Source: Verrucomicrobiota bacterium | GTDB taxonomy: Bacteria; Verrucomicrobiota; Verrucomicrobiia; Limisphaerales; UBA11358 | Direction of reading: 5' to 3' | DNA length: 61,143 bases | NCBI GenBank assembly: GCA_050015635.1 | Contig: JBEKBA010000002.1 | Coordinates: 1 to 61,143, forward strand | In this document: one piece after another, positions 7,636 through 39,273 of the stretch | How the letters are laid out: every line of letters starts with the position of its first letter | Numbering within the stretch: the stretch's first letter is position 1 | Translations under genes and position numbers: made by a program | The notes under the pieces: model-generated | Seen by the model: the letters and a program-made list of their open reading frames with translations, nothing else | Database searches by the model: none | Told to the model about the DNA's origin: nothing

Positions 7636-7709
7636 TGGAGCGGGCGAAGGGAATCGAACCCTCGTAACCAGTTTGGAAGACTGGCGCTCTACCATTGAGC
7701 TACGCCCGC
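7636..7709 (-). tRNA. tRNA-Gly (anticodon UCC), CCA encoded
   Basis: The reverse complement reads GCGGGCGTAGCTCAATGGTAGAGCGCCAGTCTTCCAAACTGGTTACGAGGGTTCGATTCCCTTCGCCCGCTCCA. It folds as a cloverleaf with a 7-bp acceptor stem, anticodon loop CTTCCAA and a GGTTCGATTCC T-arm. Confidence 0.9.
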
Positions 7710-34193: not shown

Positions 34194-35093
34194 ATGCTTG
34201 AAGATCGTGACTATATGCGCCAGCCGGCTTACCGTGAGTCGCGCGTCTCCTTCACGGTCGCGCTCCTGATTCTGTGCGCCATCGTCTTCGTCATCGAATG
34301 TATTGTCTGTGGCTACCCGCCGGCTTTTTCCGAAGGCAACTATTTCACGTTGAGTGTTGATGGACTGAAGCATGGCTTCGTCTGGCAGTTGCTGACGTAT
34401 CAATTCATGCACGCCGGATTGATGCATATTTTGCTCAATGGCTGGGCGATTTACATTTTTGGCCGCGCCATCGAGGAAACGCTCGGCGGCAAGAATTTCC
34501 TGATTCTGTTTCTAACCAGCGGAGTTATCGGCGGCTTGGTGCAAATGCTGGCCGCGTGGCTCTGGCCTGATTATTTCGGCGGCCCGGTCGTCGGCGCCTC
34601 GGCGGGCGCATTTGGACTGGTGGCGGCATTCGCGGTTTTGTTTCCGGAACGCGAACTGATGTTGCTCCTGTTTTTTGTTCTGCCGTTAAGGTTGCGCGCA
34701 AAAACCTTGTTGTGGTTTGCAGCCGCGCTGGCGGTGTTTGGCTTGGTTGTTCATGGCGACAACATCGCCAATGCGGCGCATTTGGGCGGAATGTTGACGG
34801 GCATTATCTTTATACGGCTGTTCATTCAAGGCCGCTGGCATTGGCCGCAATGGGGATTTCCGGAGCGCCGCGCCGCGCCGCGTGAATTTGTCGCTGCCGG
34901 ATCAGGCAAAAGCAAAGGTGGATTTTGGCGTTCCGCTGTGGGCAAATCCGACGACGATTCGTCCACCGACGAATTTTTGAAAAATGAAGTTGACCCGATT
35001 CTCGAGAAAATTTCCGCCCATGGCATCCAAAGCCTCACCGCGCGGGAACGCCAGATTCTCGAAAAAGCCCGCGCGAAAATGGCGAAACGTTGA
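34194..35093 (+). CDS. Rhomboid-family intramembrane serine protease
   Basis: HILLNGW (HxxxN), the GASAGAFGL catalytic Ser motif and AAHLGGM catalytic His, plus a soluble C-terminal extension. Confidence 0.85.
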   Translation: MLEDRDYMRQPAYRESRVSFTVALLILCAIVFVIECIVCGYPPAFSEGNYFTLSVDGLKHGFVWQLLTYQFMHAGLMHILLNGWAIYIFGRAIEETLGGKNFLILFLTSGVIGGLVQMLAAWLWPDYFGGPVVGASAGAFGLVAAFAVLFPERELMLLLFFVLPLRLRAKTLLWFAAALAVFGLVVHGDNIANAAHLGGMLTGIIFIRLFIQGRWHWPQWGFPERRAAPREFVAAGSGKSKGGFWRSAVGKSDDDSSTDEFLKNEVDPILEKISAHGIQSLTARERQILEKARAKMAKR

Positions 35094-35196: not shown

Positions 35197-35664
35197 TCAG
35201 TTTTGTTCTCGCTCCCCGGAGCAATTTGGTATCTCACTCAGCGTCTCCCGCGTCTTCGTCACGTCATGCTTCAGGAATTGTAGTTGTTTGCCAATGCCTA
35301 AACCTTTCATTGGGATTTTGTAATCCCTGATGTGAGCCATCAAGTTGTCTCGATATATTTGCCCAGCGAGAAAAATAAAATGGTCATTCTTCACGTCGGT
35401 TTTTTCTTTGAGTTGAGCGGCAACCCCATTGGCCCATTCTTTTCGTTGTGCCGATGTCATCTCTTTGAGCGTAACGTCATAACGTTCTATCTCGGTTTCT
35501 AAATCAAGCAGACCATACTTGGCTGAAAGAATGAAAATGGCGTCAGGGTTTTGATTTCTCGTATATCGCAGGGCTAGTTTAAACCAAGGGCTAATGTATA
35601 AATCACCGGCCTTCGCCTTGGATCGTTTCGTTTTAACACAGGAAATCAGAACTATTGTCTTCAT
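35197..35664 (-). CDS. Hypothetical 155-aa protein with N-terminal 'LISCVKTK' motif (possibly DUF6884-like)
   Basis: MKTIVLISCVKTKRSKAKAGDLYISPWFKLALRY... It is the last gene of the R-M-like cassette. The family assignment is from memory only. Confidence 0.45.
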   Translation of the reverse strand: MKTIVLISCVKTKRSKAKAGDLYISPWFKLALRYTRNQNPDAIFILSAKYGLLDLETEIERYDVTLKEMTSAQRKEWANGVAAQLKEKTDVKNDHFIFLAGQIYRDNLMAHIRDYKIPMKGLGIGKQLQFLKHDVTKTRETLSEIPNCSGEREQN

Positions 35665-35677
35665 GGTTCAGGTTTGA

Positions 35678-35836
35678 TTAGACAAGTTCGCCCTCCTCTT
35701 TCGCCCGCTGCATTTTTGGTGTTTTGACTTTTGCGGTTTTGGCTTCTTCCGCTGCGCGTTCAAGATTCAGAGTGAGCAACTTTTCCAGAATATCGCGGAC
35801 GGCGAGCAGAATGATGCTTTTGACACTACGCTTCAT
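35678..35836 (-). CDS. Hypothetical 52-aa Lys/Glu-rich protein
   Basis: MKRSVKSIILLAVRDILEKLLTLNLERAAEEAKTAKVKTPKMQRAKEEGELV. Its ATG (35836-35834) overlaps the methylase stop as ATGA, suggesting translational coupling. Confidence 0.4.
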   Translation of the reverse strand: MKRSVKSIILLAVRDILEKLLTLNLERAAEEAKTAKVKTPKMQRAKEEGELV

Positions 35837-36795
35837 TTTGTGCGGTGCGATTTTTTCGCAACCGATGAAACTTTGTAAGCTGTCGGTTCTTCTCGAAAAA
35901 TTCCGCCATCTTCGACCCAATCAAGATTGCGACCAATTAACAATTCGTCCATCTCGGCGTGATGTGTGTTTTTCATCGCCACGGGTTTTGTCTTGAAGCC
36001 ATGTTGCTCGGCCAATGCGCGAACTTCTTCGGCATTGTCGTATGTCATCAGAAAATCTCCGCGCAGTTTTTCACAAACAGAAAAGAGATGCTCGTGGTCA
36101 ATTTCTGAATGTGTGTAAAGCCGCGAGCCAGCACGCTTGCCACCAGCGGTGTATGGCGGATCAATAAAAAATACGGCATCCCGCTCTTTCTGAAAACGAG
36201 CCAGCACGTCAAAAGCATCGCCGTGGATAAATTCAAGACGGTTTGCAACGTGTTCAATGTTTGTAATCCGTTTGGCAATCGTTTGCGGATACCAGCGCGA
36301 CAAAATTCCTTTTCCGTTCTCACCATTCTTTAGCACACCAGCACCTTCCGCCAAAATTCCGCCGTGTGCCGTCCGGTTTTTGAGGACTGTCTGGAATGCG
36401 CGTTCGCATTGTGACTTTGGAGATTTGGCAAACTCTGCTTTGGCGGATTCTGGCGACAAATCGAAATTCATTATTCGTTTGGCCAGCCATCGCGCATCGC
36501 CCGCAAGAATTGTCTGCCAGACAGCGGCAATTTGGTCATCGAGTTCAACCATGACGACGGAATCGGCAAGATGCTCAAATGCGGCAGTAAGACTGATAAT
36601 TCCGCCACCAGCAAAAGGCTCAACCAGAACTTTTGGCTGGCTCGGAAGGCTCATCATCCAACGACGGAAAAGTGGCACGAGCCAAGTCTTCCCGCCGGGA
36701 TAACGAAACGGGCTGCGTTGCGGCACAGACGCCACATTCACCGGCCTGTCACGTTCAACGAAGTCTGGTAATAAAAATGTTTGCGAGACGCTCAT
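35833..36795 (-). CDS. DNA N6-adenine methyltransferase, D12 class (Dam family)
   Basis: 320 aa with FRYPGGKTWL, EPFAGGG (motif I) and FFIDPPYTAGG (DPPY, motif IV). Confidence 0.85.
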   Translation of the reverse strand: MSVSQTFLLPDFVERDRPVNVASVPQRSPFRYPGGKTWLVPLFRRWMMSLPSQPKVLVEPFAGGGIISLTAAFEHLADSVVMVELDDQIAAVWQTILAGDARWLAKRIMNFDLSPESAKAEFAKSPKSQCERAFQTVLKNRTAHGGILAEGAGVLKNGENGKGILSRWYPQTIAKRITNIEHVANRLEFIHGDAFDVLARFQKERDAVFFIDPPYTAGGKRAGSRLYTHSEIDHEHLFSVCEKLRGDFLMTYDNAEEVRALAEQHGFKTKPVAMKNTHHAEMDELLIGRNLDWVEDGGIFREEPTAYKVSSVAKKSHRTK

Positions 36796-37673
36796 TTGCC
36801 AAAAGGATTTTCCAGTGTGCGATTTATTGGCGGCGTTTCCAGTTTCTCGTCAACTTTTTCCTGCAAGTGGCTGATAAAATCTTCCATTTTTCCGGGACGC
36901 GATTTTGTGATCTGATTCAATGCGGGTTCAAAACGTGTATAAACAATCCGCTCTCGGAATAATTCATATTGATCACCTGCATTTGCGGGCGGCTTCAAAT
37001 CATAAATCATCCAGGCAATGTCGGCTTTGTCTTTTACAACTTCCGGCAGCTTTGGCAGCGTGTTGAAAAACGCTTTATTGAGCGCGACGGCAGTTTTCTT
37101 GCCCCAGGCGTTGATAATTCCGCCCTTGAAAATTAATTGCGGAGCGAGCCGTTTTCGGGATGAAGATAAATAATCCGGTCGTGGATAATTGGCTTCGTTT
37201 GCCCAATCCATTTTACAATTTTTGGCCGGAGATTCCATGTAATGCTCAAACGGATTTCGCACGTTGCCTGAAATATACACAGCTTGAACTTCAAGCGCGC
37301 CGAAATCATAAACTTTCCCGGATTTATCGTAAGCACAGACAACAATGTCAATATTGCCCGCTGAACCTCCGTCGGCATCTTTCAGGCGAACTTCCGTGAG
37401 TGTTGTCCAGGTTGCATTCGGAGCGAAGAAAAAGTCCGCCGCATCATCGGCGATCATCCAGCTTTGACGAAAACGGATCGGACAGGTGATGACTACTTCG
37501 CCGTCGTGAAATACACTGCACACGCCGAGCGGATTTTGGGCTTTATCTTTTGTGCAATTCGGAACTTTATTGTTGAATGGGCAGAGACGTTTTGTCCGAT
37601 GGCGATTGGCCTTGGCACTCATGTCCGTTGTCGTAAAGCCGAAAACTTCTGCGAGTGGATGCTTTGTATTCAT
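36792..37673 (-). CDS. Type II restriction endonuclease, NotI-family-like
   Basis: 293 aa. The N-terminal LAEVFGF...CPFNNKVPNCTKDKAQNPLGVCSV...ITCPIRF matches the Cys4 metal-binding pattern of NotI (AEFFG..CPF..C.K..GVC..CP.R), and ALEVQAVYISGN matches NotI VLEIQTMDFHGS, as I recall it. The stop overlaps the methylase ATG (ATGA). Confidence 0.6.
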   Translation of the reverse strand: MNTKHPLAEVFGFTTTDMSAKANRHRTKRLCPFNNKVPNCTKDKAQNPLGVCSVFHDGEVVITCPIRFRQSWMIADDAADFFFAPNATWTTLTEVRLKDADGGSAGNIDIVVCAYDKSGKVYDFGALEVQAVYISGNVRNPFEHYMESPAKNCKMDWANEANYPRPDYLSSSRKRLAPQLIFKGGIINAWGKKTAVALNKAFFNTLPKLPEVVKDKADIAWMIYDLKPPANAGDQYELFRERIVYTRFEPALNQITKSRPGKMEDFISHLQEKVDEKLETPPINRTLENPFGK

Positions 37674-37935
37674 TTGAAGTTGTCACAGTAGTAGAGCGTG
37701 TCCATGCCGCGATTTTGCGCGGGAAATTCGCCACCGTCAATCCACCATCTGAAATGCAAAAAAACGTTCTGTTAAATGCAGGACACCCACGCCCGACAAT
37801 TGCCAATCGCAGCTTTTCCCATCATTCCGTAAACCCGCTGCTGCAATCGCGCTGGCTGGAAACGCGGGGTTTTGTGCCGGCAACGGCCCGGTAGTTCAGG
37901 CTTTTAATTTTTCCTTTTTCGTTTTTAATTCCCCC

Positions 37936-39273
37936 ATGATTACGCGCTATTCCCGGCCGGAAATGCGGGCCATCTGGACGGATGAAAACAAGCTCCGCAT
38001 CTGGCTGCAAATCGAACTCCTCGCCAGCGAAGCGCTGGTTGGGGAAGGGATCGTGCCCAAGGCCGATTTCGCTAAAATGAAAACTGGCGCGGAGAAATGT
38101 TTGGCGGATACGAAAGCCTTGGCCGCACGCGCGAAGGAATTGGAAAAGACGCTCAATCACGACGTCATCGGATTCACGACGGCCGTCGTCGAAAAAATAA
38201 ATGACCGCGCCGGCCGCTGGCTGCATTTCGGTCTGACCAGCAGCGACATCGGCGACACCGCGTTCGCCGTTCAAATGACGCAGAGCGCGGATATTCTCAT
38301 CTCCGACGCAAGGCAATTGCTGCCGGTCATCGCCCGCCGCGCGAAGGAATACAAATTCACGCCCTGTATCGGGCGCAGCCACGGCATCCACGCCGAGCCG
38401 ACGACGTTTGGTTTGAAACTTGCCCTCATGCGCGACGAATTTGGCCGCGCTCTGGAACGCCTCGAGCGCGCGCGCAAGGTCGTCGCCGTCGGAAAAATTT
38501 CCGGTGCTGTCGGCACGAGCGCGCATTTGTCACCGCGCGTGGAAAAATTTGTCTGCAAAAAACTCGGGTTGAAGCCCGCGCCCATCGCCACGCAAGTGGT
38601 TCAGCGCGACATCCACGCCGAGTTCATGAGCGCGCTCGCCCTCGTCGGCGCGAGCATGGAGCGTTGGGCGGTCGAGTTCCGCCACCTCCAGCGCACGGAA
38701 GTGCTCGAAGCCGAGGAACCGTTCACGAAAGGCCAAAAGGGCTCAAGCGCCATGCCGCACAAACGCAATCCCATCACTTGGGAACGCCTTACCGGCCTCG
38801 CCCGCGTGCTCCGTGGCAACGCCGTCGCCGCGCTGGAAAACGTCGCCCTCTGGCACGAGCGCGACATCAGCCACAGTTCCGTTGAGCGGATTATTTTCCC
38901 CGATTCCTGCACGCTCCTCGACTACATGTTCGACCTGCTCACGCGCCTGATGGAGGGTCTCGTCGTCTATCCGGCGAACATGAAAAAGAATCTCTGCCTC
39001 TCGCTCGGCATGTGGAATTCACAGACCGTTTTACTCGCATTGATCAAAAAAGGCCTGACGCGCGAAGAGGCTTACGACCTCGTCCAGCGCAACGCGATGA
39101 AAACGTGGGAAGTCAAACACGCCGGTCGCGACGACGCGGATTTTCTCGAAATCCTGAAAGCCGACCCGGACGTGGCAGGGCATTTCCAGCAGGGTGAACT
39201 GGAAAAACTCTGCTCGCTTGACTTCCATTTCAAGGAAGTGAAGAGCCGGTTCAAAAAATTGGGACTGAACTAA
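37936..39273 (+). CDS. purB: Adenylosuccinate lyase
   Basis: 445 aa with MITRYSRPEM start and GSSAMPHKRNP signature loop. Confidence 0.95.
   Translation: MITRYSRPEMRAIWTDENKLRIWLQIELLASEALVGEGIVPKADFAKMKTGAEKCLADTKALAARAKELEKTLNHDVIGFTTAVVEKINDRAGRWLHFGLTSSDIGDTAFAVQMTQSADILISDARQLLPVIARRAKEYKFTPCIGRSHGIHAEPTTFGLKLALMRDEFGRALERLERARKVVAVGKISGAVGTSAHLSPRVEKFVCKKLGLKPAPIATQVVQRDIHAEFMSALALVGASMERWAVEFRHLQRTEVLEAEEPFTKGQKGSSAMPHKRNPITWERLTGLARVLRGNAVAALENVALWHERDISHSSVERIIFPDSCTLLDYMFDLLTRLMEGLVVYPANMKKNLCLSLGMWNSQTVLLALIKKGLTREEAYDLVQRNAMKTWEVKHAGRDDADFLEILKADPDVAGHFQQGELEKLCSLDFHFKEVKSRFKKLGLN

Follow-up and report, generated by a model that had tools for sequence, protein, structure and literature searches.

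The segment 35,197-35,836 of the 61,143-nt DNA of a Verrucomicrobiota bacterium analysed here (the window) is likely the scar zone of a mosaic genomic island of 2.6 kb and not a functional addition to the restriction-modification (R-M) cassette that lies beside it. To judge from the homologies of its two ends, the 52-aa ORF of this zone is a junction chimera and probably no independent gene, and it belongs to no gene family; the 155-aa ORF is, by its sequence, a new, damaged member of the known DUF6884 family. Neither ORF is novel, neither is part of the R-M cassette, and adjacency is their sole link with it. The features of the locus are collected in Table 1.

Table 1. Features of the island, its flanks and the two ORFs under study (positions in the window)
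Feature	Positions	Strand	Basis
Rhomboid (rhomboid-protease) gene	34194-35093	+	island flank
Mosaic genomic island, 2.6 kb, between rhomboid and purB	35234-37826		comparison with host relatives
155-aa ORF, DUF6884 / PADLOC PDC-M57A, orphaned and 3'-truncated	35197-35664	-	PF21818, PDC-M57A
Non-homologous 3' extension of the 155-aa ORF, 23 codons and stop	35197-35268	-	blastn break; comparison with L181
Part with homology to intact PDC-M57A genes (codons 1-132, preceded by 5 nt of leader)	35269-35669	-	blastn
52-aa ORF, chimeric junction ORF, probably no independent gene	35678-35836	-	two halves with separate homologs, no family match
Codons 16-52 and stop of the 52-aa ORF, 3' remnant of an MmeI-family type IIG/IIL gene	35678-35791	-	phmmer, PADLOC, nucleotide alignment
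Codons 1-19 of the 52-aa ORF, mini-ORF-derived	35780-35836	-	alignment with L152, L102, L127, L111
D12-class N6-adenine DNA methyltransferase (MTase), intact, 320 aa	35833-36795	-	PF02086, PADLOC
NotI-family type II restriction endonuclease (REase), intact, 293 aa	36792-37673	-	PF12183
purB	37936-39273	+	other island flank

The restriction-modification pair and the boundaries of the island

The gap between the rhomboid gene and purB holds, according to the ORF listing, four minus-strand ORFs of 293, 320, 52 and 155 aa. The first of them matched the Pfam NotI family (PF12183, E=1.6e-60), and its cluster includes members titled 'NotI family restriction endonuclease [Verrucomicrobiota]'; the second matched PF02086 (E=1.6e-13) and the PADLOC models PD-Lambda-5_B (1.9e-40) and MTase_II (1e-25). 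A metagenome scan with the methylase as query provided the R-M comparison set of 80 metagenome loci, with MTases 58-94% identical; in 70 of them the MTase is preceded by a NotI-family gene. The nucleotide homology to the sister cassettes extends in the window from about 37675, the REase start, to about 35830, the methylase stop, and then ends; being confined to the REase and the MTase, it defines a conserved R-M unit of two genes. A single promoter-like site (37740-37712) lies in the island leader upstream of the REase, and no terminator-like site was found between the MTase and the DUF6884 gene. An Rfam scan of the window gave one tRNA only, far from the island.

The earlier note had regarded the two small ORFs as the novel part of the cassette, and this was contradicted by the co-occurrence counts as well as by the end of the R-M homology, which lies at the methylase stop or at a 26-codon mini-ORF described below. 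None of the 80 related NotI-family/D12 cassettes contained DUF6884, GIY-YIG or an MmeI-type tail, neither of the two ORFs being present in any of them, and none of the 82 DUF6884 loci described below contained this R-M pair. In agreement with the same note, no C-protein HTH, Vsr, toxin or antitoxin domain was detected in either ORF with Pfam, NCBIfam, PADLOC and PHROGs.

The boundaries of the island follow from two host relatives. The close relative L181/L182, with flanks 88-92% identical, is homologous to the window up to 35231-35233 and again from 37824-37827 on, with about 800 nt of unrelated filler at the same site; the other relative (L184) has the empty site, with 86 nt from rhomboid to purB. 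The GC content of the island is 47.3%, and 41.9% in its DUF6884 part, against 55-57% in the flanks. No convincing terminal direct or inverted repeats, as a mobile-element signature, were found at its ends. In nine strain-variant contigs, whose flanks are 0.2-1.1% divergent, the island contains 0-1 SNPs against 4-25 expected (24.7 in L001 and 22.7 in L002; P about 1e-10), which points to its recent acquisition or recent spread by recombination. Because the island is effectively SNP-free in all nine variant contigs, the population variants were uninformative as a measure of selection on the 52-aa ORF or the DUF6884 gene. A further contig (L185), considered as a second junction of the tail with a DUF6884 gene of the normal 138 aa, was recognized as this very island, containing a stretch of Ns.

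Composition of the 52-aa ORF

The ATG of the 52-aa ORF (35836-35834) overlaps the TGA of the methylase (35835-33) as ATGA, as had been noted before, and the description of the product as charged and helical also holds: 20 of its 52 residues (38%, counted by hand from the sequence) are charged, and helices are predicted at residues 5-37 and 40-50 by single-sequence AF2 (pLDDT 81). The overlap exists because the last codon of the methylase, AAA, is followed by a TGA stop, and the same AAATGA end is found in at least 14 sister cassettes with unrelated ORFs downstream. No Pfam or NCBIfam match was obtained for the ORF, and both it and its 80-aa version lack a Pfam match even at E<=1, the nuclease, helical, MTase and TRD domains of MmeI being absent. 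As a whole, the ORF is confined to this island, since its 90% cluster comprises two members, both from the same island, and no homolog of the whole chimera was found outside the island among the cluster members or by phmmer against 1.84e9 representatives. Its conservation beyond this genome, which the earlier note had treated as decisive for its proposal, was thus not observed. Each of the halves has its own separate homologs elsewhere.

The C-terminal part resembles the end of MmeI-family enzymes. The phmmer search against the 1.84e9 representatives gave 35 matches at E<1e-3 (2e-6 to 1e-3) with 58-74% identity. They all begin at about residues 10-16 and reach residues 47-52, and for 33 of the 35 targets the match ends no more than three residues from the target C-terminus. 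The longer targets carry MmeI_TRD and MmeI_C, and the tail that follows the AAYGWPADL motif in the MmeI-family targets reads …DEQILEKLLALNLERAAEEAKAAKVKKPKTSRAKxxDELI. Two PADLOC type IIG profiles (REase_MTase_IIG) were matched at their C-termini (positions 910-949 of 959), and the same tail terminates 93 of the 119 close homologs of one MmeI-family fragment (P0154), the titles of which include 'type IIL restriction-modification enzyme MmeI [Limisphaerales]'. At the nucleotide level, the window is similar to two MmeI remnants (L017 and L018) from ATTCTGGAAAAG (codon 16) as far as the common stop codon. The ORFs of 240-480 aa with the MmeI tail are, on long contigs, isolated or placed behind other MmeI fragments, by which they are recognized as decayed genes. 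Many decayed MmeI copies of this kind were seen on other PVC-group contigs. When the tail was compared with plasmid enzymes by tblastn, the matches stopped at MmeI_C, the Trichlorobacter enzyme ending 18 nt further, so that the charged tail is either limited to certain lineages (PVC-group hits) or hidden by the low-complexity filter.

The N-terminal part corresponds to a 26-codon mini-ORF with the same ATGA start, which is present behind the MTase in four sister cassettes (L102, L111, L127 and L152), reads there MK(R/C)(S/T)xKxIxxLTVxEILDExIAKKLx, and ends at the exact point where the four cassettes cease to resemble each other. About 6 of the 80 related cassettes possess it, and its variable columns are distributed over the three codon positions as 14/5/15, the second position varying least. 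The mini-ORF MKRSHKVIVALTVQEILDEHIAKKLA* was aligned to MKRSVKSIILLAVRDILEK of the window, which makes up residues 1-19 of the 52-aa ORF. This N-terminal match and the MmeI tail at the C-terminus together show that the ORF is a chimera, with the common I-L-E/D-K (35780-35791) as the junction.

The DUF6884 gene, its usual partner and its truncated end

The 155-aa product begins with MKTIVLISCVKTKRSKAKAGDLYISPWF, in which 'SCxKTK' and then YISPWF are found as described in the earlier note, and the likeness to DUF6884 that was suspected there has been confirmed: PF21818 was matched at E=1.1e-44 (152.3 bits against a cut-off of 30) by residues 4-132 on model positions 1-134 of 135. The PADLOC model PDLC04712 PDC-M57A (E=6.1e-54, 1-135 on 1-136 of 138) and phrog_5935 (2e-28) were also matched, together with weak matches to four PADLOC DpdC models (1.3e-5 to 1.8e-3) and to Pfam H2O2_YaaD, and the homologs of the ORF number more than 2000 at E<=1e-5, well above what chance would give. 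The CxxxK motif is represented by C9-V-K-T-K13 and LSAxxG by L46-S47-A48-K-Y-G51, in columns that are invariant or nearly so across 30 homologs. All 23 columns invariant across these homologs, including C9, K13 and L46-S47-A48, are retained, and the product departs at two (A35T, P61R) of the 48 columns that are conserved, a value typical of the family; with its frame open and so few columns deviating, it may still fold. The AF2 model has a pLDDT of 85.4, with values below 50 for residues 144-155, and its comparison by Foldseek, an approach already advised in the earlier note, gave YaaA (5caj_A) as the only significant PDB neighbour (E=1.8e-4, probability 1.00, TM 0.59 by the query).

The Pfam update assigns to DUF6884 two motifs, CxxxK and LSAxxG, together with a YaaA-like 'cantaloupe' fold that has a basic cleft, and one of its members, YfjM of B. 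subtilis, flips a base in an AlphaFold3 model and has been pulled down on abasic and ribonucleotide lesions (PMC11701544). DpdC carries DUF6884 (PMC11888242) and was shown to convert preQ0-DNA into ADG-DNA in vitro (PMC11888242, PMC10164549). Apart from the Pfam update and a survey of dpd islands, our literature search gave no mention of DUF6884, and it gave no paper naming PDC-M57. To our knowledge, DpdC is the sole member of the family with known chemistry.

The usual context of the gene was assessed in 82 loci with DUF6884 genes 55-81% identical, derived from 80 species-representative genomes of many bacterial and archaeal phyla and from two metagenome contigs. A GIY-YIG nuclease (PDC-M57B) is placed directly downstream of DUF6884 or fused to it in 68 of the 82 loci, seven of which have both in a single fused ORF; three other loci end too early for the partner to be judged, and GIY fragments only were found in L028 (which also ends early), L045 and L049. 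Some 70 of the genome loci extend far enough downstream, and about nine of these have no PDC-M57B-type GIY-YIG (about 10% of those sampled), and some of the GIY-less loci contain HNH endonuclease or AGOG/HhH-GPD-like glycosylase genes instead. The nearest relatives of the 155-aa ORF, with 138-139 aa, are 81% and 77% identical in protein and 86-87% in DNA, and they share 8 nt with the GIY-YIG gene that follows them (Pfam GIY_YIG_3; PADLOC PDC-M57B, 3e-94). No Pfam family occurs in more than three of the 146 genes flanking the DUF6884/GIY-YIG modules, and these genes gave no systematic linkage with R-M systems or defence islands. With flanks so heterogeneous, the pair behaves as an autonomous two-gene unit untied to R-M. 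PD-(D/E)XK, PIN, GmrSD_N, type I S subunit, UvrD and others are the families seen among the flanking genes.

On viral contigs, 107 DUF6884 homologs were confirmed, the best 80 of which were examined. Most viral homologs are stand-alone, a GIY-YIG partner being found in two of these best 80; QueC and GTP cyclohydrolase I adjoin five of them, including the three closest (49-57% identical), and a DnaB-like helicase precedes DUF6884 in 56.

The gene in the window has lost its end. Its blastn similarity to the intact copies (L011, 87% identity; L016, 86%) covers exactly 35269-35669 and breaks after ...CAATTCCTGAAG (codon 132), and the intact homologs stop about five codons past this point, where the GIY-YIG gene begins. 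The adjoining 35234-35268 is filler, and 35197-35233, from which the 155-aa ORF takes its final 12 codons and its stop, is the native rhomboid-purB intergenic DNA. The same intergenic …TCAGTTTTG(T/A)TCTCGCTCC…CCGGAGCAAT is present in L181, which has no island; the ORF end is therefore a read-through to a chance stop, only about 100 nt from the convergent rhomboid gene. The pairwise dN/dS of the DUF6884 gene is 0.44-0.53 with the window copy against 0.27 between the two intact copies, a sign of relaxed constraint, and a three-taxon split of the pairwise distances, made by hand and from few substitutions, gave about 1.0 for the window branch. No GIY-YIG gene or remnant was found in the 61-kb window by tblastn with two PDC-M57B proteins (best E=0.95), and the PDC-M57 system is thus incomplete for want of its B component.

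Proposed history, alternative readings and known systems

The intact unit of the NotI-family REase and the D12 m6A MTase thus abuts truncated remains of two other DNA-targeting systems. The last approximately 37 codons of an MmeI-family gene were fused in frame to the first approximately 19 codons of the mini-ORF via the I-L-E/D-K microhomology, giving the 52-aa ORF, and a DUF6884 gene kept 5 nt of its leader, lost its last five codons together with the near-obligate PDC-M57B, and now runs into intergenic DNA. The 155-aa product, if made, would come from read-through of the R-M operon, as there is no terminator-like site in between, and the 52-aa peptide, if translated via the ATGA coupling, would be a by-product. 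The DUF6884 proteins are probably YaaA/DpdC-like DNA binders, with a base flipped into a pocket of Cys/Lys (CxxxK) and LSAxxG. In the intact PDC-M57, DUF6884 would most likely read or process a particular base, possibly a modified one, and the GIY-YIG nuclease would cut; in view of the DpdC chemistry and the viral preQ0 neighbourhoods, the target may be a modified base, with a lesion as the alternative, and PDC-M57 may plausibly be a modification-dependent restriction or repair-type module. Both the base-flipping or reader role of DUF6884 and the defence role of PDC-M57 are candidate roles only. The window holds the presumed reader half only, which could bind DNA but not perform the nuclease step, and its DUF6884 gene is most likely a recently stranded relic, non-functional or partly functional.

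This account of a scar zone is opposed by the open DUF6884 frame, which is off at only 2 of 48 conserved columns and the product of which may still fold and act, and by the existence of GIY-less genome loci (about 9 of some 70) and of mostly stand-alone viral homologs, which make a solo function possible. The orphan DUF6884 could accordingly be a functional stand-alone enzyme or DNA binder, with base chemistry like that of DpdC or lesion binding like that of YfjM, which is retained as useful and was perhaps recruited to the transcript of the R-M operon. The intact ORF with all invariant residues and a confidently predicted fold, the solo genes in about 10% of the sampled genome loci and in most viral loci, the other partners seen, such as HNH, AGOG and HhH-GPD-like glycosylases, and the pull-down of YfjM on abasic and ribonucleotide lesions (PMC11701544) are consistent with this reading. 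However, the copy belongs to a PDC-M57A subfamily (55-81% identical) accompanied by GIY-YIG in 68 of the 82 loci, its leader and 3' end were lost at recombination junctions, and its branch dN/dS is about 1. No matches to QueC and FolE, and no preQ0 pathway genes, were found in the window, and the genes called up to about 6 kb from the island have housekeeping Pfam domains only, with none of the DpdA/DpdB type; this gene content gives no indication of preQ0 or ADG in the host DNA. A stand-alone function is, on balance, unlikely. More specifically, a DUF6884 protein expressed from the R-M operon might read or modify bases on its own (e.g., 7-deazaguanine-type or otherwise modified bases of incoming phage DNA) and so alter the DNA that the neighbouring REase can cut, which we hold to be very improbable; if true, a solo base reader or modifier of this kind would be a new kind of R-M helper built by recombination.

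The co-orientation and tight spacing of the four ORFs with their ATGA overlap, the presence of a small ORF at the same position in four related cassettes, and the rank of the DUF6884 family as a PADLOC candidate defence component would suit a novel accessory module of the R-M cassette formed by both ORFs, for instance a regulator, addiction module or additional effector. The co-occurrence counts, with 0 of 80 cassettes having either ORF and 0 of 82 DUF6884 loci having the R-M pair, largely refute such a module, and two-thirds of the 52-aa ORF are an MmeI tail, the ATGA is set by the AAA-TGA end of the methylase, which recurs in at least 14 loci with unrelated ORFs, and the HTH, toxin and antitoxin signatures were not found; hardly any credence can be given to it. 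Just as little can be granted to the 52-aa ORF being a real micro-protein, which either keeps the mini-ORF function in its 19 N-terminal residues or has acquired a new function of the MmeI helix. The mini-ORF is indeed of constant length, with its stop preserved, in four cassettes that differ in their downstream DNA, and it varies least at the second codon positions (14/5/15), translational coupling through ATGA is possible, and a confident helix is predicted at residues 5-37; but the window copy is without the last 7-10 mini-ORF codons and carries 33 unrelated codons instead, the mini-ORF itself occurs in only about 6 of 80 cassettes, and the chimera has no homolog outside the island. The scar zone of a mosaic island is therefore preferred by us as the explanation of both ORFs. 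It calls for caution, as tightly packed same-strand ORFs beside an R-M pair can be recombination debris, and the comparison with empty sites and sister cassettes settles quickly whether a module or debris is concerned.

Among the known systems, the MmeI-family IIG/IIL enzymes are resembled by residues 16-52 of the 52-aa ORF, which are 60-74% identical to the MmeI_C end with its charged tail and share the same stop; unlike these enzymes, the ORF keeps only the last approximately 37 codons, with no nuclease, MTase and TRD domains. E. coli YaaA (DUF328, 5caj), the sole significant structural neighbour of the 155-aa AF2 model, shares 12% sequence identity with it and is larger (261 aa), with extra elements; its role is in peroxide and iron stress and not in a nuclease pair. 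With DpdC of the Dpd 7-deazaguanine R-M system, the 155-aa ORF has the DUF6884 domain in common, residues 10-93 giving the weak match, and the closest viral DUF6884 homologs lie in preQ0-synthesis neighbourhoods. However, the ORF is a small single-domain form against the approximately 310 aa of DpdC, about 80 positions of which (46-128) are covered, so that the full DpdC architecture is not present.

With the Pfam DUF6884 family (YfjM, the DpdC domain), the ORF shares the full-length HMM match, the CxxxK and LSAxxG motifs and the YaaA-like fold, and the window DUF6884 copy is in itself ordinary; from the other Pfam members it differs by a junction-made, non-homologous C-terminal extension of 23 residues. 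It matches the A component of PADLOC PDC-M57 (A is DUF6884, B is GIY-YIG) at 6e-54, and its nearest relatives are genuine A-B pairs, whereas the window is without the B component of this candidate defence system. The small form of DUF6884 is almost always paired with or fused to GIY-YIG in bacteria and archaea, and occasionally accompanied by HNH or HhH-GPD/AGOG-type genes instead. This GIY-YIG pairing, together with the viral preQ0 clusters, leads to the testable hypothesis of a modified-base reader coupled to a nuclease, for which the intact pairs, such as L011 and L016, are a better subject than the truncated window copy.

The island and its junction among strains

Across the whole island (35234-37826), only 0-1 SNPs separate the window from the nine strain-variant contigs (L001-L009), while the flanks diverge by 0.2-1.1%; for L001, one island SNP was observed against 24.7 expected, and differences from these contigs are clustered immediately outside the island, at window 34882-34919. 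The paucity of SNPs in the island together with the differing flanks suggests that it was recently acquired or has been spread among the strains by recombination. What lies at the rhomboid-purB junction varies, with different contents in the host relatives L184 and L181/L182, which lack the island, and in the window (Table); the sole ORF called in the L181/L182 filler is of 61 aa. The 79-aa ORF overlapping the restriction endonuclease start is annotated as a gene in public contigs (L001:3771-4010 and others), gave no Pfam match, and is probably a spurious call spanning the island/native boundary at 37826. Against Rfam, the window gave a single match, to a tRNA gene that has no relation to the island.

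Mini-ORF and MmeI-family tails

In four sister restriction-modification cassettes (L102, L111, L127, L152), a MKRSHKVIVALTVQEILDEHIAKKLA-like mini-ORF of 26 codons starts within the ATGA of the methylase stop, and its end is the exact point at which homology among these cassettes ceases. Its variable columns number 14, 5 and 15 by codon position, with the fewest at the second, and the mini-ORF may either encode a genuine micro-protein or mark where the cassette ends. In PVC-group metagenomes, thousands of ORFs of 50-480 aa correspond to the C-terminal part of MmeI-family enzymes and carry a well-conserved charged tail; on long contigs they either stand alone or have other fragments ahead of them. 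That the 3' end survives so often may be due to decay, to breaks in assembly or to recombination at this tail.

Table. Coordinates of the island-related features and of DUF6884 loci
Feature	Location	Remark
Rhomboid-purB junction, L184	L184:6915-7000	empty, 86 nt
Rhomboid-purB junction, L181/L182	L181:6090-6888	unrelated AT-rich filler, ~800 nt
Rhomboid-purB junction, window		2.6-kb island
79-aa ORF	window 37655-37894 (+)	
tRNA gene	window 7639-7709 (-)	
26-codon mini-ORF	L102:4960-5040; L111:4960-5040; L127:2306-2386; L152:784-864	window counterpart 35780-35836
MmeI-family C-terminal pieces	L266:8001-8729; L267:8001-8801; L270:5395-7440; L017:5559-5813; L018:557-703	
DUF6884/GIY-YIG fused ORF	L057:5001-6053; L027:5001-6047; L050:216-1259; L020:1276-2538; L034:4903-5979; L083:1369-2436; L067:4995-6029	
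DUF6884 loci without GIY-YIG, with other neighbours	L048:4218-4982 (also L032, L077); L079:5416-6213; L091:3579-4385; L031:5584-6753; L024:3943-5004	
Viral DUF6884 with QueC/GTP cyclohydrolase I	L186:1840-3546; L187:3402-4444; L188; L193:3171-4423; L260	
Viral DUF6884 block	L196-L258, e.g. L201:2609-4739	56/80 viral loci

Partners and neighbours of DUF6884 in prokaryotes and viruses

The fusion of DUF6884 and the GIY-YIG nuclease into a single ORF of about 350 aa or more in seven genomes supports the idea that the two work as one machine. Where the usual GIY-YIG partner is absent, the genes beside DUF6884 differ. One encodes a conserved protein of ~250 aa that weakly matches EndoIII Fe-S; others encode proteins resembling an AGOG N-glycosylase/lyase or HhH-GPD, an HNH endonuclease, or members of DUF7225, DUF6979 and DUF6946.

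In 56 of the 80 viral loci, a conserved block surrounds the DUF6884 gene, in the order of a ~456-aa DnaB-like helicase, DUF6884 and a ~87-aa ORF, the last without a Pfam match. The viral homologs nearest to the window protein (46-57% identity for L186-L188 and L193) adjoin genes for QueC and GTP cyclohydrolase I, which belong to 7-deazaguanine (preQ0) synthesis, an adjacency that hints at a role like that of DpdC in modifying phage DNA.
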